From a virus, in the IMG/VR virus record IMGVR_UViG_3300024252_000004, positions 280,770-344,769 of that record: DNA of 64,000 nt; one strand, 5' to 3'. Positions 7,458-60,098 of the stretch are shown in pieces. The notes under the pieces were generated by a model, which did not search any database, was not told where the DNA came from, and saw only the letters and a program-made list of their open reading frames with translations. Numbering within the stretch: the stretch's first letter is position 1; each line of letters starts with the position of its first letter. The translations under genes and the position numbers were made by a program.

Positions 7458-8146
7458 AATGAATTCGATCATATTGGAAATTAAAGCTGCCGAAGGCGGC
7501 ACAGATGCAAAGCTCCTTGTTGATGAACAGTTGGCCATTTATAGGAGATACTGTTCTCGGAGGTCTCTTTGAGTTAGCTCTCTTAGATTCCAGAAGCGGT
7601 TTTATCAGATGCAGAGTCAGCGGCAAAAACGTCAAAAAACATTTTAGGCATGAGCCTGGAGGCCACAGATGGCAAAGGGTTCCTCCGACAGAGAGACGAG
7701 GAAGGGTTCATACTTCTACGATCACTGTCGCTGTCCTACCGGAAGTAACTGAATCTGAAGTTAAGATTAGCGAAAAAGATTTAGAATGGAAAGCCTTTAG
7801 GGGTTCTGGTCCCGGCGGTCAGCATAGAAACAAAACTGATTCTGCTGTGTCGCTTCACCATAAGCCTACTGGAATCAAGATCCGTTCTGAATCTCAAAAG
7901 AGTCAGAAGCAGAATAAGGACACCGCTCTTGCAATATTGAGAGCGAGGTTGCATTCTGAGCAGAGAGAGTCTCAGTCTTTGCGACGCAGTAATATGAGGA
8001 AGAGCCAAGTGGGCTCAGGTATGCGCGCCGACAAAATCAGGACGATCAGGTTGCAGGACGGACAAGTTACGGATCACAACACTGGAAAAAGAATCTCTGC
8101 GAAAAAATATTTGCGCGGAGACTTGGAAGGTCTATTTGAAAAGTAA
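7458..8146 (+). CDS. class I peptide chain release factor, RF1-like (PxT = PPT), lacking domain 1; needs +1 frameshift at 7570 and has an additional +1 frame break at 7499/7501
   Basis: SD GGAGG + ATG 7458; MNSIILEIKAAEGG (frame 0) / TDAKLLVDEQLAIYRRYCSRRSL (frame +1, stops at UGA 7570) / ELALLDSRSGF..GGHRWQRVPPTERRGRVHTS..SGPGGQHRNKTDSA..DKIRTIRLQDGQVTDH (frame +2) align contiguously to RF1. Confidence 0.75.
7559..7573 (+). other. prfB-type programmed +1 ribosomal frameshift site
   Basis: GGAGG-UCU-CUU-UGA-G: SD-like element 3 nt upstream of CUU UGA, same architecture and spacing as E. coli prfB AGGGGG-UAU-CUU-UGA-C. Confidence 0.7.
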
Positions 8147-8336
8147 AGAAGCGATTGCAAAAGTGATGTTTTGGAGAATCGTAATTTCGATTCCGTTAAG
8201 CACGATAGTTACATATTTGTATTACGGTCAACTCTTCAAGGCTATTGGGTTTGTCATCTTGATGAACGTAATGATGACGGCGGCACACTTCGCTTTTGAA
8301 AAGGTTTGGCCTAAGATTTGGAGGAAGCTTGAGTAG
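8136..8336 (+). CDS. small membrane protein
   Basis: 66-aa ORF with two hydrophobic helices. Confidence 0.4.
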   Translation: MKSKEAIAKVMFWRIVISIPLSTIVTYLYYGQLFKAIGFVILMNVMMTAAHFAFEKVWPKIWRKLE

Positions 8337-8524: not shown

Positions 8525-8617
8525 TGCGGGGTCGACTAGTCTGGCCCATGTCACCAGTCTCATAAGCTGGCTCTGAGTATACCTCAATCGTTGGTTCAAA
8601 TCCAACCCCCGCACCCA
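8525..8617 (+). tRNA. tRNA-like, anticodon CAT on class-II scaffold (19-nt variable arm), CCA encoded
   Basis: acceptor TGCGGGG/CCCCGCA perfect, D stem GAC/GTC, anticodon stem CCAGT/GCTGG loop CTCATAA, variable arm hairpin TGAG-TATAC-CTCA, T arm identical to tRNA 2556. Confidence 0.5.
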
Positions 8618-13130: not shown

Positions 13131-13664
13131 TCAATTCCGATCTGTTCCACCACTGAATCGTCCATCACCTGATAGGAAGTGATCAACTTCGTGACAGGTC
13201 GGACAAACAATCTCTAAGTTCTCAATCGAGTTATTCTCTCTATTGCGATCTTTATGATGAACTTGTAGAACTTCAGGATGCTTATCGTATCCGCAATGAG
13301 AGCATATCTGTTCAAGATGCTCTTTTGCAGTTTTGCGATAATCCTTTCGGTTATCAGTATAGTGCGGCGGATGAATTTCTTTTATCCCTCCTATCCTTTG
13401 TGCAATATCTTTGCAATTTCTTGAGCAAAAAACAAATCCGCTTTTAGATGCAGCAATCTTAGAGGCAGACCTGTAAAAGTCTTTATCACAAATAGCACAA
13501 ACACAATTTGGCTTTTGTATCTTCGGATTTTTCTTTCTCCATTCAAAAGAGCATTTGCGATTGCAAAATTTTGCGTTTCCTCTGTTTAATTCTTTAATTT
13601 CTGCATCAAATTGCGTATAACAATTTAAGCAACTTTTCTTAATGGTTCTACCTTTGTAAGACAT
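13131..13664 (-). CDS. HNH homing endonuclease
   Basis: HHKDRNRENNSIENLEIVCPTCH HNH motif plus multiple CxxC pairs; sits between tRNA-Tyr and tRNA-Cys. Confidence 0.75.
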   Translation of the reverse strand: MSYKGRTIKKSCLNCYTQFDAEIKELNRGNAKFCNRKCSFEWRKKNPKIQKPNCVCAICDKDFYRSASKIAASKSGFVFCSRNCKDIAQRIGGIKEIHPPHYTDNRKDYRKTAKEHLEQICSHCGYDKHPEVLQVHHKDRNRENNSIENLEIVCPTCHEVDHFLSGDGRFSGGTDRN

Positions 13665-13685: not shown

Positions 13686-13761
13686 GGGGCCTTAGCTCAA
13701 TTGGGAGAGCGCGACATTTGCAATGTCGAGGTCGCGAGTTCGATCCTCGCAGGCTCCACCA
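13686..13761 (+). tRNA. tRNA-Cys(GCA), CCA encoded
   Basis: acceptor GGGGCCT/AGGCTCC, anticodon stem CGACA/TGTCG loop TTTGCAA, T arm GCGAG-TTCGATC-CTCGC. Confidence 0.7.
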
Positions 13762-13821: not shown

Positions 13822-13843
13822 CTCCCTTAGCTCAGTTGGTTAA
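13822..13843 (+). pseudogene. tRNA 5' remnant (acceptor + D arm start CTCCCTTAGCTCAGTTGGTTAA) truncated by HNH gene
   Basis: canonical tRNA 5' end with no matching D-stem 3' strand, anticodon or T arm; overlaps the stop of minus-strand HNH 13840-14325. Confidence 0.45.
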
Positions 13844-14325
13844 TTCCATTTTGGTTTTAACTTATAGTGTTCTTCTCTGTGGCAGTTTGCACACAGCATG
13901 ACGCATTTGTCAAGTTCAGCTTTAATGGTATCCCAGGCATAAGTATTCCCAGAGCCAATGCCGAAATCTTTCTCGTTTGGTTCTAAATGGTGAAAATCAA
14001 ATGCATCAATACATTTGTCATATCCACAATACTCGCACTTTTCTCCTTTATATTCTACGGCTTTAATCTTACACTGCCATCTTCTTTTTTGCACATAGTA
14101 CTTGTTCTTACACTTTTTTGAGCAAAATTTTCCTGAAGATGGCAAGTCACACAAATGCCATGTGCATTCCAAAGCTTTTGACTTTTCTTTATTTTTTGGA
14201 GAAGTTGATAGTCCAAATTTCTTAAGCCAATGACGAACATTTGTTTGCGAGCAAGATAGCTCTTTTGCGATTTCTCTGGTAGAATAATTATTATCAACTA
14301 ATAACTTTAAAGTTTCTAATTCCAT
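13840..14325 (-). CDS. HNH endonuclease with N-terminal HTH
   Basis: FDFHHLEPNEKD...LCANCHREEH HNH motif; N-terminal STREIAKELSCSQTNVRHWLKKFG helix-turn-helix. Confidence 0.75.
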   Translation of the reverse strand: MELETLKLLVDNNYSTREIAKELSCSQTNVRHWLKKFGLSTSPKNKEKSKALECTWHLCDLPSSGKFCSKKCKNKYYVQKRRWQCKIKAVEYKGEKCEYCGYDKCIDAFDFHHLEPNEKDFGIGSGNTYAWDTIKAELDKCVMLCANCHREEHYKLKPKWN

Positions 14326-14365: not shown

Positions 14366-14452
14366 GCTACTGTGGCCGAGCGGTTGAAGGCAGCAGGCTG
14401 TTAACCTGCCTGGGAAACCACATCATAGGTTCAAATCCTATCGGTAGCGCCA
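14366..14452 (+). tRNA. tRNA with tRNA-Ser body (D arm TGGCCGAGCGGTTGAAGGC, long variable arm, G73) but anticodon GTT
   Basis: acceptor GCTACTG/CGGTAGC, anticodon stem GCAGG/CCTGC loop CTGTTAA (one change from Ser GCT loop CTGCTAA), CCA encoded. Confidence 0.5.
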
Positions 14453-15288: not shown

Positions 15289-15704
15289 AAAGAGTTTATG
15301 TTGATATGGACGGAGTCCTTTGTGATTACGTTGCAAAATTTACAGAACTCCGTAACGAAGGAAACAAGTTTCCTCAGCAAAGCTTTGACTTCTTCAGAAG
15401 TATGAAGCCTATGCCATCGGCTCTTGCAGCTATGGGAATACTATCTAAACATTTCGATGTTTGGATTTTGACTAAGCCTTCCTACAAAAACCCTATGTCT
15501 TATACAGAAAAGAGACTTTGGGTTGAGGACCATCTTGGTCTGGATTGGTGTAAGAAGCTGATCCTTTGTCCTGATAAGGGATTGGTTATAGGAGATTATC
15601 TTATTGATGATTTCTTGTGGCCTGAATTTCAAGGTGAACAAGTTCATTTTGGTTCAAATAGATTTCCAAATTGGAGATCGGTAATAGATTATATGCGCCC
15701 GTGA
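15246..15704 (+). CDS. HAD-superfamily 5'(3')-deoxyribonucleotidase-like phosphatase
   Basis: VYVDMDGVLCD motif I (DxDxV); start may be TTG 15284 rather than ATG 15246. Confidence 0.55.
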   Translation: MGMATRSCSGRNKLKRVYVDMDGVLCDYVAKFTELRNEGNKFPQQSFDFFRSMKPMPSALAAMGILSKHFDVWILTKPSYKNPMSYTEKRLWVEDHLGLDWCKKLILCPDKGLVIGDYLIDDFLWPEFQGEQVHFGSNRFPNWRSVIDYMRP

Positions 15705-15785
15705 GCCGAGTGGTTGATGGCCCCAGACTCTTAATCTGGTACAGGTAGTGCTGCAACGTAGGTTCGAATCCTACCGGGCGTACCA
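15695..15785 (+). tRNA. class-II scaffold tRNA with anticodon CTT (Lys codon AAG), A73, CCA encoded
   Basis: acceptor GCGCCCG/CGGGCGT, D arm GCC-GAGTGGTTGAT-GGC, anticodon stem CCAGA/TCTGG loop CTCTTAA, 18-nt variable arm, T-loop TTCGAAT. Confidence 0.5.
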
Positions 15786-21690: not shown

Positions 21691-21768
21691 GGGGAATTAG
21701 CTCAATTGGCCAGAGCGGCAGATTCTAGACCTGCGACAGTGTGGGTTCGAGCCCCACATTCCCTACCA
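21691..21768 (+). tRNA. candidate amber-suppressor tRNA, anticodon CTA, tRNA-Trp-like body
   Basis: acceptor GGGGAAT/ATTCCCT, D arm GCTC-AATTGGCCA-GAGC, anticodon loop TTCTAGA on stem GCAGA/CCTGC (A-C mismatch at 31-39), 6-nt variable, T arm GTGGG-TTCGAGC-CCCAC, CCA encoded. Confidence 0.5.
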
Positions 21769-39858: not shown

Positions 39859-40554
39859 ATGGATTCCGCGAAATATCCCAGGTCGCTGCATTGGCCGAGT
39901 TCCCCAGGAACTACCTCAGATGACCGTTTCATTACACAGGCACAAGCGCTCGCATTTCTAAATGTCGAGACTGTGCTTACCGAAAAGCTTGACGGTGGAA
40001 ATACTACCATAACGAGAGATGCCTTTTTTGCAAGGTCTCATGGTGGAGAACCAGCTCACCCGTCATTCAATCTTCTACGCACCCTTCATAAGAATTATCT
40101 ATGTAGGGCCATTGATAAAAATATATCAGTATTTGCTGAGTGGTGCTTCGCAGTACACTCAATTAGGTACTCGATGCTTCAAGATTATCTCAACATTATC
40201 GCCGTCAGGAATGATGAAACCGGCGAATGGTGGGATTGGGACGAAGTATGTTTGATGGCTGATCACCTCGGCTTCCCCACTGTACCAGTTCTACTCCGTG
40301 GAACGTTTACAGACATAGGCGCCTTGGAAAAAACTATGACCACGTTCTCTGGCTTGTCGTCTTTGTACGGCCCAACAAGAGAAGGTGTAGTTCTAAGAAA
40401 AGTCAAGGGTGTTGCTGAGATCAAAGACGAGCGTGGTCTTTGCTTAGATGGTCTTGCTAAGTGGGTAAGAGAAGATCATGTTCAAACGGACGAACATTGG
40501 AGCAAGAAGAAAGTTGAAATTCAGCCAACCATATCGGCACTGAGTTTTATGTAA
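39859..40554 (+). CDS. ATP-dependent RNA ligase (RNA_ligase/DRB0094-like family)
   Basis: KYPRSLHWPSSPG..DD N-terminal signature and nucleotidyltransferase motif I TEKLDGGN (KxDG). Confidence 0.6.
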   Translation: MDSAKYPRSLHWPSSPGTTSDDRFITQAQALAFLNVETVLTEKLDGGNTTITRDAFFARSHGGEPAHPSFNLLRTLHKNYLCRAIDKNISVFAEWCFAVHSIRYSMLQDYLNIIAVRNDETGEWWDWDEVCLMADHLGFPTVPVLLRGTFTDIGALEKTMTTFSGLSSLYGPTREGVVLRKVKGVAEIKDERGLCLDGLAKWVREDHVQTDEHWSKKKVEIQPTISALSFM

Positions 40555-40640
40555 TCAGCCTTTTGCTTCGTTCTAAAAATTGCGTATATATCCTAGACAA
40601 GAAAGCTAAATCCTGTAAACCTCCATCAAGGAAGAAATTA

Positions 40641-41561
40641 ATGCTCCGTAGACTATTCAGTATGTTCAGTGGATCCGCTCCTACCATCAAGGCAAGGAAC
40701 GTGACACATAAGTACCTGTCCAACGCTCAGGTGTTGGCCAAGGCAATGGGGGATAAGCTTAGGATTAATCCTTCTGCCACCGCCCCCAAGGGAAAGAATC
40801 TTTTCATCATCGACTTCTATGGCGATAAGATGGCTTCCCGCGCAGAATTTCTTGGAGAGGAGATTTCTTCCTTGATGACCGTTGCAAATCCGGAGACTGA
40901 TGCGGTCCTTATCCGCCTCAATTCTCCTGGTGGAGCCGCACACGCATACGGATATGCGGCTTCTCAGATTGAAAGACTCAGAAAGCGTGGCCTTCATGTC
41001 ACTGTGTCTGTAGATCGCGTAGCCGCTTCCGGTGGTTACTGGATGGCTTGTGTTGCGGATAAGGTTATCGCAGCGCCTTACTCTATCATCGGTTCCATTG
41101 GAGTCGTTGCAGAGTTTCCGAACTTCGCAAAGGTCCTTGAGAATCTCGGAGTTGAGTACAAGCAGTACACTGCTGGTAAGTTTAAGAGAACCGTATCTCC
41201 TTTCACCGAGGCAGATGAAGAGGGTGAGGCAGAGTTTGTTCGATCTCTCAATGAGATTTACGATGACTTCAGAGAGCACGTTATCTCCTTCCGTCCCGAC
41301 GTTGATGCTGACGAGGTAGCTAACGGTAGAACTTGGAATGGAACCAGGGCTCTTGAGATTGGCCTTGTTGATGAGGTTCTTACTTCGGAAGAGTTCATCG
41401 GGCGTGCTTGCACAGAGTTCTCGGCAATTAAGATTGAGTTCATCGGCGAAAGAGATAGTTTGGGCCGCATGATCGGAACTGGCATCGCAACGACTCTGTC
41501 TGACATCATCAGCCTTTCGATTGAGAAGCTGTTTGTCAACATGGGAATGTCGTGGAAGTAG
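40641..41561 (+). CDS. S49-family serine peptidase (SppA-like; candidate prohead protease)
   Basis: ATG 40641 after AAGGAAG; LIRLNSPGGAAHAYGYAASQIERLRKRG..SVDRVAASGGYWMA..KQYTAGKFK ClpP/crotonase-fold S49 signature. Confidence 0.7.
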   Translation: MLRRLFSMFSGSAPTIKARNVTHKYLSNAQVLAKAMGDKLRINPSATAPKGKNLFIIDFYGDKMASRAEFLGEEISSLMTVANPETDAVLIRLNSPGGAAHAYGYAASQIERLRKRGLHVTVSVDRVAASGGYWMACVADKVIAAPYSIIGSIGVVAEFPNFAKVLENLGVEYKQYTAGKFKRTVSPFTEADEEGEAEFVRSLNEIYDDFREHVISFRPDVDADEVANGRTWNGTRALEIGLVDEVLTSEEFIGRACTEFSAIKIEFIGERDSLGRMIGTGIATTLSDIISLSIEKLFVNMGMSWK

Positions 41562-41989
41562 ATAGAATATACAAATACGCCGAACTTCCTCCAGAAAAAG
41601 GAGTAGTTAAGTTCGGCTGGGGAGCTACAGAGGAAATGCCAGAGACAGATTACGTCTTAGGCTATCATTCCCGTTCTAAGTTCGCCACAGAGGAAGAGGT
41701 CAGTCTTTCTCGCAAAGAAGGGACTAATGCAGCCTCCGTGGCTGATTACACAAAGTTTCTGCAAAGCCTTACAGGAAGTACTCCAGAAGCATTCTATGAG
41801 AAATGGGATGGAAAAGAGGATGAGCTTAAGGCTTTTTGGTCAGCAAATTTCAGCAATGCCGATCCCAAACAATATCTATTTGTTTGGAAGCTATCAAGAC
41901 TGTTAGTCACTGGCAAGAAATTCGTAATGTATAGTAGGGGATTTAGGCTGGTGAAAAATGAGACAGGAGACACGCCGACAGAGGTATAA
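41552..41989 (+). CDS. hypothetical protein
   Basis: 145-aa ORF (GTG start). Confidence 0.4.
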   Translation: MEVDRIYKYAELPPEKGVVKFGWGATEEMPETDYVLGYHSRSKFATEEEVSLSRKEGTNAASVADYTKFLQSLTGSTPEAFYEKWDGKEDELKAFWSANFSNADPKQYLFVWKLSRLLVTGKKFVMYSRGFRLVKNETGDTPTEV

Positions 41990-42476
41990 TGGGAAAAAGA
42001 ATGATGCAATTTCTTTACCGCTTAGCATTGTCACGGTCAACTTTGATTTTGATGACAATCTTGCTTTCACAATCAGAACCGCTGCTTGCTATGGTGTGGG
42101 CACTATTTATGTAATAGGCTCCGTACCGGACAGAAGTTTTTTGAACTCTCGCTCCGGCAGTCTGTATGACTACGTTGACATCTACTCTTTCTCTCAGCCG
42201 AGAGACTTTACAGAGTTTGCAAAGAAGAACGGGTATAATATAGTGTCGGCCGAGCTTTCGGATGATTCTGTAAGCCTGTTCGATTACAAATTCGACATGG
42301 ACACGCATACGTGTCTGGTGTTAGGCCATGAAACAACTGGCGTACCCATCGAATGTACCTTGAATGGAGATAATGTTTTCATACCAATGCTCGGAGTAGG
42401 GTTTTGTTTGAATACGTCCCAGACAGGAACAGCAATCATGACAGAGTATGTTCGTCAGTATTTGGAGAGAAAATGA
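41958..42476 (+). CDS. SpoU/TrmH-family RNA 2'-O-methyltransferase (SPOUT)
   Basis: CLVLGHETTGVP..FIPMLG..LNTSQTGTAIM matches SpoU motifs 2 and 3. Confidence 0.6.
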   Translation: MRQETRRQRYNGKKNDAISLPLSIVTVNFDFDDNLAFTIRTAACYGVGTIYVIGSVPDRSFLNSRSGSLYDYVDIYSFSQPRDFTEFAKKNGYNIVSAELSDDSVSLFDYKFDMDTHTCLVLGHETTGVPIECTLNGDNVFIPMLGVGFCLNTSQTGTAIMTEYVRQYLERK

Positions 42477-44443: not shown

Positions 44444-44846
44444 GGGGGCGTTTTGGATTCGACCGGGTAACAGATAGGAATAGTGCAAGCCGATCAAGGT
44501 AACTCAGATCGTTATAAGCGTTACAAAAAACAAACTAGTTGACGACTATTCATTCGTGTACGCAAACGCAGGCAGAGGCTTCGGCGCTCCTGTAGTAGCA
44601 TACGCCTAATTCCGATTTAGGCATGTGGACTCTGTGTTCCATATATCCAAACACAGATAAGTGGTTGAACGCACTGACATAAACATTGTTCAAAAATGGA
44701 GTAGCCCGAAAGGGAGGAGGCGTCTATCATTTGGCGTCAGGGGATAAAATGAATACTTTGCCTATTTAGAGAAATGGGATAAGCTTGTGAACGACTTGAA
44801 ATTGACGTTATGCGACACGAGGGTTCGACTCCCTCCGCCTCCACCA
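44444..44846 (+). ncRNA. ssrA: tmRNA (SsrA), standard one-piece
   Basis: 5' GGGGGCGTTTTGGATTCGACCGGG and 3' GAGGGTTCGACTCCCTCCGCCTCCACCA match tmRNA termini; acceptor GGGGGCG/CGCCTCC with G3-U70 and A73; tag frame GCA AAC GCA GGC AGA GGC TTC GGC GCT CCT GTA GTA GCA TAC GCC TAA (ANAGRGFGAPVVAYA). Confidence 0.85.
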
Positions 44847-44860
44847 TCAAAACTTGCCTG

Positions 44861-44892
44861 CTCCACCTTAATTGCGTATAATTAAGGTGGAG
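44861..44892 (+). promoter_or_regulatory. perfect 13-bp hairpin sequestering the RBS of HNH gene 44900
   Basis: CTCCACCTTAATT-GCGTAT-AATTAAGGTGGAG; SD GGTGGAGG lies in the 3' arm, ATG 8 nt downstream. Confidence 0.55.
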
Positions 44893-44899
44893 GGCAAAT

Positions 44900-49600: not shown

Positions 49601-50725
49601 ATGAATATAATTCAAGCCAGTAATGCTAACGTAGTAAGGGTTGCGGAGTATTTCCTACCAAAGGAAATTACAAATCAAAACTTAATAATAGCAGGTGGGT
49701 TTGCTACGTGGCTGCTATATTTGCATAAGACCGTAGAAGATTGGGATAAGTTTTTTGCAGACTTAGATGTGAGTCTCATAAATCTTGAGGATAAACGGTT
49801 AAAGGATGAAGCGACAAAAGGTATTGCGAAATTTGGAGATATAGATATCTGGATTCCGGAGAACCATTCTTTAAGAAAGATGAAAATAATCACAAGTCAG
49901 GAGCTTTATCCCTTTGGCCTTAAAGAAAACGCAGGACTTGTGGAGAAAAGTCTTGCTTCCGAGAAATCATTTGAGAAAAGCTTCGGCATTTCCTCTGACC
50001 TTCTGAAGGTTAGCAGATTCGCACACACATATAGGCTTGAGCATACAGTTAAACTTTTAGGAAAAATAGCGGTTCCGTCAGTGTTCGGCTTGTTTGAGCC
50101 AATTGTAATTCCGTATAGAAAGCGAATTAAAATGAGGAATGCTTTTCAGATTATAAGAAGAACCTGTGATTCGTTAGAGGAAGTTTTTTCTACATTTGAT
50201 TTTCACCATACAAGAGCAGCCTACTACAATGGCTTACTACACTTTACAAAAAAAGCTGAGAGGACTTTCGAAGAGAAGACAATCTTTCCGACAAAGAGTT
50301 TCCTTGAGCGACACGATAGCATATCTATTAACTCTGCCTGTAGAGCATTTAAGTATATGGAGAGGTACGGATTTGGCTTCTCAGAAGACTTGGCAGATAA
50401 GATTGCGGACCTGTATCTTCAAGTTGGAATAGCAGAGGATACTGCGGATTATGTTGGCCCTCCAAAATATGCCATCATCAATTTATTCAATGCAACGAAT
50501 CTCACCCCAGAGTATGATCCAGATTATTTAATCTTTTTTTCAGAGATCACTCCAGAAACCTTGAGTAAGGTTAAAGGTATTTATCTTAAAAGATTTCTAA
50601 CATCATTTAAGACATTTTCGAGAATGTCATGCTTTAAAGATGAGTATATAGGTTTGTTGCTATGTTGCGACATGGAAGAAATAAGTAAAGTAATCGAGAG
50701 GCGACTATATGAACAATCCGACTGA
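49601..50725 (+). CDS. hypothetical protein; weak nucleotidyltransferase-like N-terminus
   Basis: 374-aa ORF; IIAGGFATWLLY..DLDVSL..FGDIDIWIPE loosely resembles GS..DxD of pol-beta-type NTases. Confidence 0.45.
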   Translation: MNIIQASNANVVRVAEYFLPKEITNQNLIIAGGFATWLLYLHKTVEDWDKFFADLDVSLINLEDKRLKDEATKGIAKFGDIDIWIPENHSLRKMKIITSQELYPFGLKENAGLVEKSLASEKSFEKSFGISSDLLKVSRFAHTYRLEHTVKLLGKIAVPSVFGLFEPIVIPYRKRIKMRNAFQIIRRTCDSLEEVFSTFDFHHTRAAYYNGLLHFTKKAERTFEEKTIFPTKSFLERHDSISINSACRAFKYMERYGFGFSEDLADKIADLYLQVGIAEDTADYVGPPKYAIINLFNATNLTPEYDPDYLIFFSEITPETLSKVKGIYLKRFLTSFKTFSRMSCFKDEYIGLLLCCDMEEISKVIERRLYEQSD

Positions 50726-53809: not shown

Positions 53810-55411
53810 ATGGGAAAAGTTGTAAAGATTGGACCTGAAGCAAGAAAAGAAATGCTTCAAGGTGTAGATATTTTAGCAAACGCCGTTAAGGCCACTCTTG
53901 GTCCGCGAGGAAGAAACGTTGCTATCGAAAGGGAATGGGGTCACCCGCTTATTACAAAAGATGGTGTGACTGTAGCTCGACAGATCAGATTGGATGATAG
54001 AATTCAGAACATGGGAGCACAGTTGGTGCGTTCGGTTGCAGCCGCAGCAAATAGCGCGGCAGGAGACGGGACAACAACTGCAACTGTTCTCGCTCAGGCA
54101 ATCTACTCCAAAGGCTTAGTTCTTGTAGACGAAGAGGGACTCAACCCTGTTCTTCTTAGACGCGGCATTGACCTTGCTGTGACAAAACTTTCAAGTAGAC
54201 TGAAGGGCTTATCTGCATCTGTAAGCGATGAAGCAAGCATGAGAAGTGTTGCTGTAATCTCTGCAAATAATGATAAGGTTCTCGGTGCCAAAATCGCAGA
54301 AGCTATCGCGGCAGTTGGTCAGCACGGAGTCATTTCCGTTGAGGAAGCGACTGGAAGATCAACTGAGGTGTTCTACTCGGAAGGTATCAAGCTCGATAAG
54401 GGATGGACCTCTGAGCATTTCGTGACAAATTCTGCAAGATTTACGGCAGAATTTGATGATTGTCTTATATTTCCTTATGATGGGGCGATTTCCAGCATCA
54501 CTGATGTAAGGGAAATTTTTGAGGAATTAGCCGAGCAATCCAAACCCGTTCTTTTGGTTGTAAAGCAGATCACAGATGAAGCTATTGCTCATCTTGTCTA
54601 CAACAAGATTCAGGGAAATATTAGAATCGCGGTAGTTCGTTCTCCTGGGTTTGGTGATTCGAGACGTGCATTCCTCGAAGACCTTGCCATTGTTTCTGGC
54701 GGAAAGATGTTCTGTGATAATGACGGAATCGGTCTTGACGGAGCAACAGTTGCTGATCTTGGGACCGCACGCAGGGTCATCGTAAGCCAGAACAGCACAA
54801 CTATAATTGAAGGTGGGGCAGATCCCAAAGATGTTGAGGCGAGAGCCATTCAGATTAAAGAGCAGCTTACTGCTGGTGGTCAACATGATTATCAGCTTGA
54901 GATTCTAAAAAGCAGACTTGCAAGAATCACTGGCTCGGCAGCGATTTTTAAGGTCGGCGGAAAATCTGAAGCTGAAATGAGAGAGAGAAAGGACAGAGTG
55001 GAAGATGCTATCAACGCTGTACGTTCAGCGCTTGAAGAAGGTGTAGTTCCCGGTGGTGGCTCCGCACTAATTCATGCCCTTCCAGTCCTTGACGAGATTG
55101 AGACAGATGGCCTTCTTCCTGAAGAGGTGGCCGGCATTGGAATTATCAGAGAGGCAGTTAAGGCCCCATTTTATCAGATTCTTGATAACGCCGGAGTCAC
55201 TGGTGCTGATGATTTTGTTGAGCAGATTTTGAATTCTGATGAGCCAAGCGGTTATGATGCTCTTAATCTTGAGTTTGTAACTAACATGTTAGACAATGGG
55301 ATTATGGATCCTTGTAAAGTTGTAAGAAGCTCTTTGGAGCATGCTGCATCAGCCAGTGGAACACTGCTGACGACAGAGGTTGCAATTTACGAAACTGAAA
55401 CGGAGAGATAA
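53810..55411 (+). CDS. groL: chaperonin GroEL (Cpn60)
   Basis: 533 aa; MGKVVKIGPEARKEMLQGVDILANAVKATLGPRGRNV..AGDGTTTATVLAQAI..full-length GroEL similarity. Confidence 0.9.
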   Translation: MGKVVKIGPEARKEMLQGVDILANAVKATLGPRGRNVAIEREWGHPLITKDGVTVARQIRLDDRIQNMGAQLVRSVAAAANSAAGDGTTTATVLAQAIYSKGLVLVDEEGLNPVLLRRGIDLAVTKLSSRLKGLSASVSDEASMRSVAVISANNDKVLGAKIAEAIAAVGQHGVISVEEATGRSTEVFYSEGIKLDKGWTSEHFVTNSARFTAEFDDCLIFPYDGAISSITDVREIFEELAEQSKPVLLVVKQITDEAIAHLVYNKIQGNIRIAVVRSPGFGDSRRAFLEDLAIVSGGKMFCDNDGIGLDGATVADLGTARRVIVSQNSTTIIEGGADPKDVEARAIQIKEQLTAGGQHDYQLEILKSRLARITGSAAIFKVGGKSEAEMRERKDRVEDAINAVRSALEEGVVPGGGSALIHALPVLDEIETDGLLPEEVAGIGIIREAVKAPFYQILDNAGVTGADDFVEQILNSDEPSGYDALNLEFVTNMLDNGIMDPCKVVRSSLEHAASASGTLLTTEVAIYETETER

Positions 55412-59014: not shown

Positions 59015-59087
59015 GGAGCATGTCCGTAGCTCTTAGTAGTTGCCTTGTATTCGCTTCGGTACTATTATCGCTCATGGAGGAATTTAC

Positions 59088-60098
59088 ATGTTGTTATCCG
59101 CAGATGTTGTAGTGGGGCTCGCTTGGGGCGATGAAGCAAAAGGAAAGATCACCTCAGCCTTGGCAGCTACAGGGCAGTACGACGCCGTGGCTCGCTGGGC
59201 CGGAGGCAATAACGCAGGCCATACGGTCTACGTCAATGGCGAAAAATACAAAACACACCTTGTTCCAAGCGGCGTATTCCACGGAATGCTTTCCATCGTT
59301 GGTCCCGGCTGTGTATTGCATCCAGAAGAATTTGAAAAAGAATTGGCTTACCTCGCAGGACACGGATTCGATACCTCTCTTGTGAAGGTATCTCCGAATT
59401 GCCACATTGTTCAAGACGAGCATATTGAGTTTGACAAGCAGAACCTTGCAAAGAAGCTTGGCACAACCTCAAAAGGTATTGCACCGAGTTACGCAGCTAA
59501 GGCGGCAAGAACAGGTCTTCTTGCCAAAGACTATTACGAAGGCAGTGACATCCTATGGGACGGTCAGCTTAGCGGTGTATTATTGTGTGAAGGAGCGCAG
59601 GGGGCTTGGTTAGATATTGATCACGGGAATTATCCCTATGTGACCTCAAGCATTACACTTGCCTATGGAGCTTGCAGTATAGGCTTCGCACCACAGCTCA
59701 TTAAGAGCATCTGGGGCGCTGCCAAAATTTATGACACAAGAAGCGGAGAAGATCCTATTTTTCCTGCGTCACTACTTGATGACCCTATGCTGTCAAAGGT
59801 TGGGGAAATTGGGGCCGAATATGGTGTGACCACAGGGCGCAGAAGAAAGGTAAATTGGCTTGATGTTGATATGCTGATTAAGTCTATCAATTTGACTGGA
59901 TGCACACACGTTGTTGTTAGCAAATGTGATGTATTGGAAGAGGCCGGAGTTTACAGGATGTATTGTAGAGGGATTCAGAACGAGCTTTCTGAGTTCGAAA
60001 GCATTACCGATATGACCGGAGTGCTGGAGACTCTTCTTAGAAAGAATTGTTCCCTTCTCAAGAGAGTGATCTTTTCCTCTTCACCGGAGAATATATGA
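59088..60098 (+). CDS. purA: adenylosuccinate synthetase
   Basis: SD GGAGG + ATG 59088; VVVGLAWGDEAKGK P-loop and GGNNAGHTV motif. Confidence 0.85.
   Translation: MLLSADVVVGLAWGDEAKGKITSALAATGQYDAVARWAGGNNAGHTVYVNGEKYKTHLVPSGVFHGMLSIVGPGCVLHPEEFEKELAYLAGHGFDTSLVKVSPNCHIVQDEHIEFDKQNLAKKLGTTSKGIAPSYAAKAARTGLLAKDYYEGSDILWDGQLSGVLLCEGAQGAWLDIDHGNYPYVTSSITLAYGACSIGFAPQLIKSIWGAAKIYDTRSGEDPIFPASLLDDPMLSKVGEIGAEYGVTTGRRRKVNWLDVDMLIKSINLTGCTHVVVSKCDVLEEAGVYRMYCRGIQNELSEFESITDMTGVLETLLRKNCSLLKRVIFSSSPENI

Follow-up and report, generated by a model that had tools for sequence, protein, structure and literature searches.

A phage tmRNA gene linked to a putative mobile nuclease gene, with its T-arm as a candidate homing hotspot

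The T-loop of bacterial transfer-messenger RNA (tmRNA) genes is a known site of group I introns: 883 sequences from 21 phyla fall into four subsites, and 23 of 844 carry LAGLIDADG genes (PMC11915505). Subsite 7 is common; subsite 2 is described only from Anaerolineae and one Myxococcota genome (PMC11915505). In cyanophage S-PM2, the nuclease F-CphI cuts intronless psbA alleles at the intron site, the intron protects against cleavage, and both elements spread (PMC6083498). Phage T4 SegB is a free-standing GIY-YIG homing endonuclease in a tRNA gene cluster (PMC2330249), and Mesoplasma florum offers a described Lon-ssrA pair (PMC10695633). Here we describe a locus in a stretch of 64,000 nucleotides (nt) from IMG/VR record IMGVR_UViG_3300024252_000004 (hereafter, the window), which is 64 kb of a huge marine phage genome of about 414 kb. 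In the window, a tmRNA gene is followed by a free-standing gene for a 197-amino-acid (aa) HNH/EndoVII-like protein. The best overall explanation, which we favor with moderate confidence, is that the phage tmRNA is functional and that the DNA of its T-arm would serve as a homing hotspot.

The tmRNA gene is real and has the canonical one-piece form, making it a new member of the known phage tmRNA class. ARAGORN finds a single tmRNA in the window, exactly at 44444-44846 on the plus strand, and Rfam RF00023 covers the same span full length (model positions 1-374; 81.2 bits against a gathering score of 47; E = 6.6e-30). The original prediction, made from the sequence alone, had named this gene, its coordinates, and its end motifs, and had proposed these two programs as checks. 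Both call a full-length tmRNA, the covariance model accepts the fold, and, since ARAGORN, RF00023, and the sequence agree, the coordinates and end motifs are correct. The acceptor stem GGGGGCG/CGCCTCC contains the G3.U70 pair and is followed by a discriminator A and an encoded CCA, and the T-arm reads GAGGG-TTCGACT-CCCTC. A blastn search of GenBank phages with this tmRNA gave zero matches, and its 5' 20-mer retrieved only unrelated tmRNAs, mostly permuted, from IMG/VR.

We compared the gene with seven related tmRNAs from syntenic loci (L011, L012, L013, L054, L055, L056, and L057) that are 65-80% identical to it. In a four-sequence alignment, scored over the acceptor stem, the T-arm, both stems of pseudoknot 1 (PK1), helix 5, and parts of PK2 and PK3, the proposed structure is 88.5% paired, compared with 39-48% in slid controls, and contains 13 compensatory pairs. 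RNAalifold counts 21 of 66 pairs as compensatory. When all eight sequences are compared, every proposed helix is fully paired in the window, and the acceptor stem and T-arm are 100% paired throughout, with compensatory changes. PK1 stem 1 covaries as CGATC/GATCG, CGCCT/AGGCG, CGTCC/GGACG, CGTTC/GAACG, and CGATT/AATCG. Compensatory changes in L011, L054, L055, L056, and L057 extend to the last hairpin, to PK2 stem 1 (CTGTGT/ACACAG, CTAAGT/ACTTAG, CTTAAC/GTTAAG), and to both stems of PK4 (stem 1: GGCGTC/GGCGTC, GGCGTT/AACGTC, ATCGTT/GGCGAT; stem 2: TCATTT/AAATGA, CTCAAT/ATTGAG, TTCGTT/AACGAA). The PK3-like element pairs more weakly in distant relatives, and the Rfam alignment of the pseudoknot body has low posterior probability.

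Close homologues of the 197-aa protein (47-100% identity) occur at eight distinct loci including the window, the others being L011, L012, L013/L014, L018, L019, L020, and L021. At all eight the gene lies directly 3' of a tmRNA gene, the L018 contig showing only the hairpin that the loci share. The genes flanking the tmRNA-HNH pair vary by lineage, leaving the tmRNA as the constant neighbor. Searching with the 395-aa protein encoded upstream identified four more syntenic lineages (L054, L055, L056, and L057), which share an S49 peptidase, a SpoU methylase, the 395-aa protein, and the tmRNA. Searches of IMG/VR with the 395-aa neighbor found no related loci, two patterns drawn from the relatives had no matches there, and a search with a 99-aa upstream protein gave one near-identical match only. 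Separately, a validated pattern for the H2/T-arm motif of this tmRNA lineage (AAGCTTGTGRAYGAC...) identified 27 marine metagenome and viral loci, L022-L048, with tags that end in LAA (ANNN[LTN]HFEQRLAA, ANNNTHFEAVALAA, and ANNNDNYEYALAA). The motif is absent from 185,579 species-representative bacterial and archaeal genomes, so the tmRNA lineage is apparently phage-carried.

Within the syntenic clade, the nuclease gene and T-loop introns are polymorphic. Two lineages, L057 (tag ADVRLAA) and L055 (long tag), have neither intron nor HNH gene; the window, L011, L020, and L021 have the HNH gene alone. In L012 and L013, the HNH gene is accompanied by a 255-nt intron, free of open reading frames (ORFs), between T-loop nucleotides 1 and 2. 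At that site L056 carries a related intron of this family; it also has the hairpin and, as a remnant of the HNH gene, only 12 codons (MSKIEVICETYT, then a stop). L054 instead carries a LAGLIDADG ORF (Pfam, 30.4 bits) within about 680 nt of inserted sequence, located between T-loop nucleotides 6 and 7. L012 and L057 differ by the intron and by a block with the HNH gene and one further ORF; the spliced T-arm of L012 is identical to that of L057.

Insertion junctions are visible in two relatives. The L019 HNH cassette is flanked by a 14-nt duplication of the tmRNA 3' end, CCCGCCACCTCCAC, and its stop codon is followed by TTATGGAGTTCATG joined to TCCCGCC..., which correspond to the 3' end of an L054-type intron and the 3' exon. 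In L021, the duplicated tmRNA 3' end is 16 nt long (ACTCCCATCGCCTCCA), and CCA is kept only in the second copy. Compared with the HNH-less L031 and L040, L019 contains an insertion of about 603 nt that starts at the T-stem/T-loop junction, with flanks 92% and 69% identical. L031 (3793-4282) and L040 encode unusually long tmRNAs (about 490 nt) whose pseudoknot region contains extra sequence; the tag that ARAGORN proposes for them is implausible, and by eye it reads ANNNYFYNSVALAA. No displaced remnant of the tmRNA 3' end follows the HNH gene in the window, L011, L012, or L013. The candidate GGAGGCAGAGG, at about 45460 in the window, was rejected as a Shine-Dalgarno-like string on the wrong strand. 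We also rejected an integrase-type island, since the inserted blocks measure no more than about 0.6 kb and have the nuclease ORF as their sole cargo; we saw no integrase in the flanking genes called on related loci.

Taken together, the alleles of this clade appear to display every stage expected for a homing element. The original prediction had suggested a homing locus on the strength of the downstream gene, and that suggestion is now well supported by the presence/absence polymorphism, the T-loop introns, the duplicated 3' ends, and the decayed copy. That the nuclease gene is mobile and tied to the tmRNA seems to us quite probable. The existence, structure, and conservation of the tmRNA, the selection on its tag, the linkage of the two genes, and their polymorphism can be read directly from the sequences.

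The intron sites correspond in the window to 44824/44825 for position 2 (L012, L013, and L056) and to 44829/44830 for position 7 (L054). In L012 and L013 the junctions read GGGU/AGGU...GCCCG...AUUG/UCGACU, with slashes at the exon boundaries. The 5' exon ends in U, paired with G11 of GCCCG to form P1; the terminal intron nucleotide is G; and excision restores GGGUUCGACUCCC, with a 7-nt T-loop. The subsite-7 intron of L054 (7666-8332) also follows the -1 U/terminal G rule and leaves a 7-nt T-loop; its LAGLIDADG ORF (7818-8234) runs antisense to the tmRNA gene. Excision in L056 restores a loop of 7 nt as well, with the non-canonical sequence UGAAAAU. In a ten-sequence alignment, the helices P7, P7.1, P8, P9, and P9.1 are 98.7% paired, and 19 of 30 pairs are compensatory, a value reached in none of 500 shuffles. 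P7 variants include GCAUA/UAUGC, GCGUA/UACGC, and the classic GACUA/UAGUC; helices P3-P6 were assessed by visual inspection.

The Rfam model Intron_gpI (RF00028) does not match this intron even at E <= 10. The same library gives no match in GenBank phage loci with an annotated Intron_gpI, such as phage phiCD211, and the model therefore misses this intron subtype. By blastn, the intron matches 58 GenBank phage records at 66-75% identity over up to 90% of its length, within split genes beside endonuclease ORFs in Firmicute and crAss-like phages. In Bacillus phage PJN02 the split gene is that of a RecD-like helicase, and the record annotates a 'mobile intron protein'; in Alicyclobacillus phage MMB025 it is the DNA polymerase gene, and in Staphylococcus phage IMEP5 the terminase gene. 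Tape-measure genes are split as well, and in crAss-like cr6_1 the match lies by an 'intron-encoded endonuclease'. With Rfam silent, it is homology and covariation that identify the insertion in L012, L013, and L056 as a group I intron, whose splicing is predicted. A literature search found no report of tmRNA T-loop introns in phages and none of a free-standing nuclease gene tied to a tmRNA.

The window T-loop, 44824-44830, is homologous to the sites that hold introns or HNH cassettes in relatives, and the T-arm as a whole differs between alleles. The HNH-less L055 and L057, and most of L022-L048, share the consensus GCGGGTTCGA. Base pair 2 of the T-stem is A:U in the window and L011 and C:G in HNH-less L055 and L057; the T-stem strand reads GAGGG in the window and GACGG in L011, with compensating 3' changes. 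L019 has the odd T-loop GGCAGCG, L056 splices to UGAAAAU, and L012 and L013 are split by introns. In all, the GCGGGTTCGA segment is disrupted or non-consensus in seven of the eight HNH-bearing or HNH-remnant alleles with a visible T-arm; the pattern is circumstantial support for resistance of such alleles to cutting, but because lineages are no independent samples, it is a lead and not a test. Non-canonical T-loops with otherwise intact acceptor ends (GGCAGCG, GGCAGAA, and, after splicing, UGAAAAU) occur in L019 (69-81), L030, L033, L044, and L056, and tmRNA genes of this kind are missed by ARAGORN and Rfam.

The tmRNA of the window encodes a long tag. The ARAGORN call and the alignment with relatives place the resume codon at GAC, position 44541: UAGUU/GAC in the window matches UAAUU/GCA in the relatives, a resume context of UA[AG]UU. 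The original prediction had the right frame and the right ending, VVAYA and not LAA, and erred in starting the tag at GCA AAC, seven codons downstream of GAC. The corresponding tags are DDYSFVYANAGRSFGAPVVAYA in L011, DDYSFVYAAGLGHFAPTVAYA in L054, DDYSFVYAAGLGNFAPTVAYA in L055, and DDYSFVYAAALGSFAPSAIAYA in L056, and the DDYSFVYA start and AYA end are invariant in these four lineages and the window. Across the five, codons change synonymously (TAT/TAC, GTG/GTA/GTT, GCA/GCT, CCT/CCA), and of the four substitutions that separate the window tag from that of L011, three are at third codon positions. Fixed ends with synonymous changes are the pattern of a translated, selected peptide, and the tag is thus under purifying selection across the five lineages. 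Sister lineages in the same gene neighborhood have short ordinary tags, ADVRLAA (L012 and L057) and AEYKLAA (L013). The window tag does not have the ...[LV]AA ending, which is a common trait of tags and no strict defining feature.

We built a degenerate tag pattern, TT-DDY.FVYA-(18-40 nt)-AYA-stop, which on validation matched the window and all five lineages. It had 0 matches in the 185,579 representative genomes and none in IMG/VR. The tag is therefore no copy of any sampled host tag, and DDYSFVYANAGRGFGAPVVAYA is specific to the phage clade. ClpX reads the terminal LAA of a tag, and mollicute tags ending in AFA are reportedly substrates of Lon. These facts make an altered fate of tagged proteins a reasonable proposal by analogy, and we advance only tentatively the idea that the AYA ending changes what happens to rescued proteins.

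The ORF for the 197-aa protein begins 53 nt past the tmRNA end. Its best PHROG matches, which are annotations and not assays, are phrog_3322 'endonuclease' (1.4e-19), phrog_1035 'endonuclease VII' (1.8e-12), and phrog_3118 'HNH endonuclease' (1.6e-10); weaker ones are 'Srd anti-sigma factor' (E = 1.3e-5) and 'decoy of host sigma70' (E = 6.6e-4). An exhaustive profile search places 26,599 cluster representatives in the family at E <= 1e-3 and 564 at E <= 1e-30. The N-terminus matches a Cys4 zinc finger of the MYM/FCS/eL24 type (E = 8.5e-4). The C-terminal core reads G-x-C-[AP]-x-[ST]-G ... S-L-D-R-[IT]-D ... G-Y ... G-N-V ... N..K, with S130, D132, R133, Y140, and N144 invariant and N153 nearly so, and its layout aligns with the CxxCG...DH...N...N of HNH and EndoVII enzymes. 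A sequence search of the PDB gave weak matches to solved HNH domains (the Cas9 HNH domain and PacI; E = 0.2-0.7), with PacI the best solved nuclease match.

Between the two genes lies a stable hairpin (Table 1) whose 3' arm sequesters the Shine-Dalgarno sequence of the HNH gene (GGAGG, 44889-44893). An equivalent Shine-Dalgarno-hiding hairpin precedes every HNH homologue examined. The window hairpin also contains a promoter-like site, with a -35 element TTGCCT (44854-44859), a 17-nt spacer, and a -10 element TATAAT (44877-44882) that spans the loop (10 of 12 positions match); promoter-like matches in the region overall are no more numerous than in shuffled sequence. For T4 I-TevI, read-through transcripts are translationally silent, and a promoter within the hairpin produces an open mRNA. 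The window arrangement resembles this logic, and by this analogy the hairpin probably gates translation of the nuclease: read-through transcripts would hide its ribosome-binding site, and transcripts from the promoter inside the hairpin would be open.

A working model can be assembled from these elements, with cleavage, target site, immunity, tag fate, and regulation as its proposed parts. RNase P and 3' trimming would release the tmRNA from a polycistronic transcript, and G3.U70 would direct its charging with alanine. Together with host SmpB, it would enter stalled ribosomes and append (A)DDYSFVYANAGRGFGAPVVAYA. With AYA in place of the ClpX-recognized LAA, rescued proteins would probably meet a fate other than with the host tag. 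The SohB-like S49 protease conserved 3 kb upstream is one candidate for handling a phage-private tag. The nuclease would most likely cut the T-arm/T-loop DNA of tmRNA genes that lack the element, and recipient genomes would then acquire the nuclease gene, along with the neighboring tmRNA 3' end, through break repair. Alleles could resist cutting by having a T-loop intron, as in collaborative homing, an altered T-loop, or changed T-stem pairs, as in the window. We give the T-arm an even chance of being the cleavage target of the nuclease. A stronger version, in which the endonuclease is T-arm-specific, the subsite-2 intron, odd T-loops, and T-stem changes are all immunity alleles, and the tag is a phage-private mark that avoids host ClpXP, is conceivable and on balance doubtful.

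Several observations weigh against a functional tmRNA with a homing hotspot in its T-arm, beginning with the nuclease itself. The 197-aa protein has no Pfam or NCBIfam match, and a Pfam nuclease model matches 0 of 46 sampled family members. In all 46, Asp-Arg replaces the Asp-His of HNH and EndoVII enzymes, so that Arg takes the place of the general-base His; this core may signify non-standard or lost catalysis. An AlphaFold2 model (mean pLDDT 56, pTM 0.30) is confident only in the N-terminal zinc finger and is too poor to test the fold. Given the missing Pfam match and the His-to-Arg change, 'HNH endonuclease' is best taken as a superfamily-level resemblance, with no demonstrated membership. 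The HNH gene reported downstream in the original prediction is upheld to that extent by its PHROG endonuclease and HNH matches.

Other difficulties concern the locus. The closest lineage to the window yielded no allele lacking the HNH gene, and the nearest such allele recovered is L055, with a tmRNA about 70% identical. L020 is HNH-positive yet has a consensus T-arm. The window has a canonical T-loop beside its HNH gene and no intron, odd loop, or duplicated 3' end that would account for self-immunity. No SmpB-like ORF was found in the 64-kb window with an approximate E. coli SmpB query, and no candidate host emerged via the tag or tmRNA motif among the representative prokaryote genomes. Finally, the DNA examined showed neither a capsid nor a terminase gene, and the phage label does not rest on structural genes.

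The missing histidine invites another interpretation, that the tmRNA is functional and the downstream protein is a domesticated DNA- or RNA-binding factor, for example a regulator or a tool of host takeover, that is no longer, or never was, a mobile nuclease. The weaker PHROG matches to sigma-factor antagonists would suit such a role, as would the unmatched Pfam HNH models, the His-to-Arg change in 46 of 46 members, and the persistence of tmRNA synteny down to 47% identity. However, presence/absence in syntenic genomes, the L056 remnant, the duplicated-target flanks, and the co-occurring T-loop introns are marks of a selfish homing gene and not of a conserved accessory factor, and the top PHROG matches are endonuclease families. 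Nor need the arginine be decisive: active beta-beta-alpha-metal variants without a His general base may exist, PacI among them. We consider domestication unlikely.

Alternatively, the HNH gene could be an ordinary free-standing homing gene that cuts some other nearby sequence, the T-loop introns being independent invaders. This would fit the canonical, uninterrupted T-loop of the window, the consensus T-arm of L020, and the occurrence of the intron family in many protein-coding genes; moreover, free-standing homing endonucleases are described as often cutting up to several hundred bp from their insertion point (PMC2988022, PMC2790892). The insertion junctions of L019 and L021, however, lie inside the T-loop or the 3' acceptor strand and duplicate sequence there, the tmRNA is the sole constant neighbor while flanking genes vary by lineage, and seven of eight HNH-bearing or remnant alleles are non-consensus at GCGGGTTCGA, compared with consensus in HNH-less L055 and L057. 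An unrelated target is improbable in our judgment.

Improbable as well, finally, is a tmRNA-like gene that does no productive tagging and acts as a decoy or inhibitor of host trans-translation or as an attP-like recombination or integration target: a tmRNA-like RNA of phage DS6A without a coding region is cited as inhibiting host tmRNA (PMC11915505), tmRNA 3' ends are common integration sites (PMC11915505), and the approximate query found no SmpB in the window, but the gene here spans the full tmRNA length and has kept its tag frame, the context of its resume codon, helix 5, and the pseudoknots intact, its tag is under purifying selection in five lineages, and no integrase was seen among the called flanking genes of related loci.

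Table 1. Coordinates of the tmRNA, its parts, and the adjacent features in the window
Feature	Position	Strand	Support
tmRNA gene, standard one-piece, 403 nt, CCA encoded	44444..44846	+	ARAGORN, Rfam RF00023, covariation
PK1 (CGATC/GATCG and GTAAC/GTTAC), just upstream of the resume codon	44491..44524	+	Both stems 100% paired in all relatives
Tag frame, GAC...GCC TAA, reading DDYSFVYANAGRGFGAPVVAYA and stop	44541..44609	+	ARAGORN coding part 98-166
Helix 5 hairpin, GCCTAA/TTAGGC, stop codon inside	44604..44622	+	6/6 pairs in all five long-tag lineages
Pseudoknot-rich body: PK2, PK3-like element, PK4, last hairpin	44632..44778	+	Helices fully paired in window
T-arm, acceptor 3' strand, ACCA	44819..44846	+	T-loop 44824-44830
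Intergenic hairpin, -25.5 kcal/mol, z-score -5.4	44854..44897	+	Fold calculation
Free-standing HNH/EndoVII-like endonuclease gene, 197 aa	44900..45493	+	PHROG phrog_3322, phrog_1035, phrog_3118

The exact HNH-like protein of the window is present on many contigs, the largest of 413,986 bp. We call the source a phage because of its PHROG matches, homing endonuclease genes, tRNA array, and an RNA ligase similar to those of published huge phages (460-735 kb). ARAGORN identifies 31 plus-strand tRNA genes from 874 to 34845, spread over 34 kb with small ORFs between them. Four of these, none of class II, are of unusual length and may contain insertions or small introns: Ile 2556-2646 (91 nt), Met 8525-8617 (93 nt), Asn 14366-14452 (87 nt), and Lys 15695-15785 (91 nt). 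Two canonical HNH genes on the minus strand, 13131-13664 and 13840-14325, flank tRNA-Ala (13686-13761). Both match Pfam HNH/HNH_3 and PHROG families (E = 8e-21 and 8e-31). Homing-type genes are also present in the tRNA array.

The array also contains an amber-suppressor tRNA with anticodon CUA (21691-21768), which ARAGORN labels 'Pyl'. A short protein resembling class-I release factors (213 aa, 7505-8146), encoded within the same array, matches Pfam RF-1 (3.3e-30) and the end of PCRF. Because TAG still terminates 16 of 91 long plus-strand frames in the window (stop-to-stop, at least 100 aa), wholesale recoding is not evident. Taken as a pair, the tRNA and the release-factor-like protein resemble a toolkit for stop codons or an additional ribosome-rescue factor. 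Upstream of the tmRNA, a module at 39859-42476, also conserved in L011-L013 and L054-L057, encodes an RNA ligase (PF09414), a SohB-like S49 peptidase with S49_N, a 145-aa protein, and a SpoU-type RNA 2'-O-methylase; L012 and L057 have an extra glutamine synthetase and class II aminoacyl-tRNA synthetase just ahead of the tmRNA. The ORF at 59040-60098 encodes an adenylosuccinate-synthetase homologue whose best PHROG match is a PurZ-type '2-aminooxy adenylosuccinate synthetase', making a Z-base pathway possible. Other ORFs encode a GroEL homologue (53810-55411), a Gad2-like (anti-Gabija) protein (49601-50725), and a YqeY-like protein (1659-2129).

If the nuclease is indeed specific for the T-arm DNA, and the intron, odd T-loops, and T-stem changes are immunity alleles, no earlier 'collaborative homing' arms race would have been described for a non-coding RNA gene. 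Few bacterial RNAs are as conserved as tmRNA, and its T-loop is under strong structural constraint; here the loop would be contested by three elements, a free-standing nuclease cassette and two group I introns unrelated to each other. The clade would then offer a natural experiment in how selfish elements exploit an invariant RNA-gene sequence and in the range of T-loop variation that tmRNA can accommodate. Knowing its natural target would also provide a handle on the specificity of a very large nuclease family without a Pfam model. Similarly, a non-LAA tag unlike representative host tags, set beside the LAA kept in sister phages, makes retuning of rescued-protein fate testable.

Like the tmRNAs of other huge phages (Al-Shayeb et al. 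2020, PMC7162821) and of mycobacteriophages (PMC11915505), that of the window is a one-piece tmRNA encoded by a large phage genome with many genes for tRNAs and translation. It differs from them in a tag family, DDYSFVYA...AYA, that is matched in no representative prokaryote genome nor in IMG/VR, in belonging to a lineage whose H2/T-arm motif occurs only in metagenome and viral contigs, and in its tie to a mobile nuclease gene. The conserved non-LAA tag of this clade is unusual. Its closest likeness is to the mollicute ssrA tags (...AFA), which are reportedly degraded by Lon and not ClpXP: both exceed 20 residues and end in Ala-aromatic-Ala rather than Leu-Ala-Ala. There is no sequence relationship between them, and the likeness is one of length and ending.

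The introns of the relatives occupy the same sites as bacterial tmRNA introns, L012, L013, and L056 at subsite 2 and L054, with its LAGLIDADG gene, at subsite 7. In contrast to the bacterial cases, these introns are in phage genomes, the window itself is intron-free, and the subsite-2 phage intron belongs to a family otherwise seen in protein-coding genes of Firmicute and crAss-like phages and has its partner nuclease outside the intron. A similar arrangement links the psbA intron with F-CphI: L012 and L013, set against L057, have an ORF-less intron plus an adjacent free-standing nuclease gene, and some relatives have neither element. Within the scheme of collaborative homing, the window represents a 'nuclease only' state, and such alleles are common. 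Unlike F-CphI, the putative nuclease would target a non-coding RNA gene, and it has DRxD instead of the DHDH...R...N (DHHRN) motif. T4 SegB is likewise a free-standing homing gene among phage RNA genes, and both would favor inheritance of the neighboring RNA-gene region in mixed infections. The nuclease family is a different one from SegB, however, and the gene is tied specifically to the tmRNA 3' end, which is duplicated or replaced in some alleles. The comparison points to homing directed at the tmRNA T-arm as a candidate new variant of free-standing or collaborative homing.

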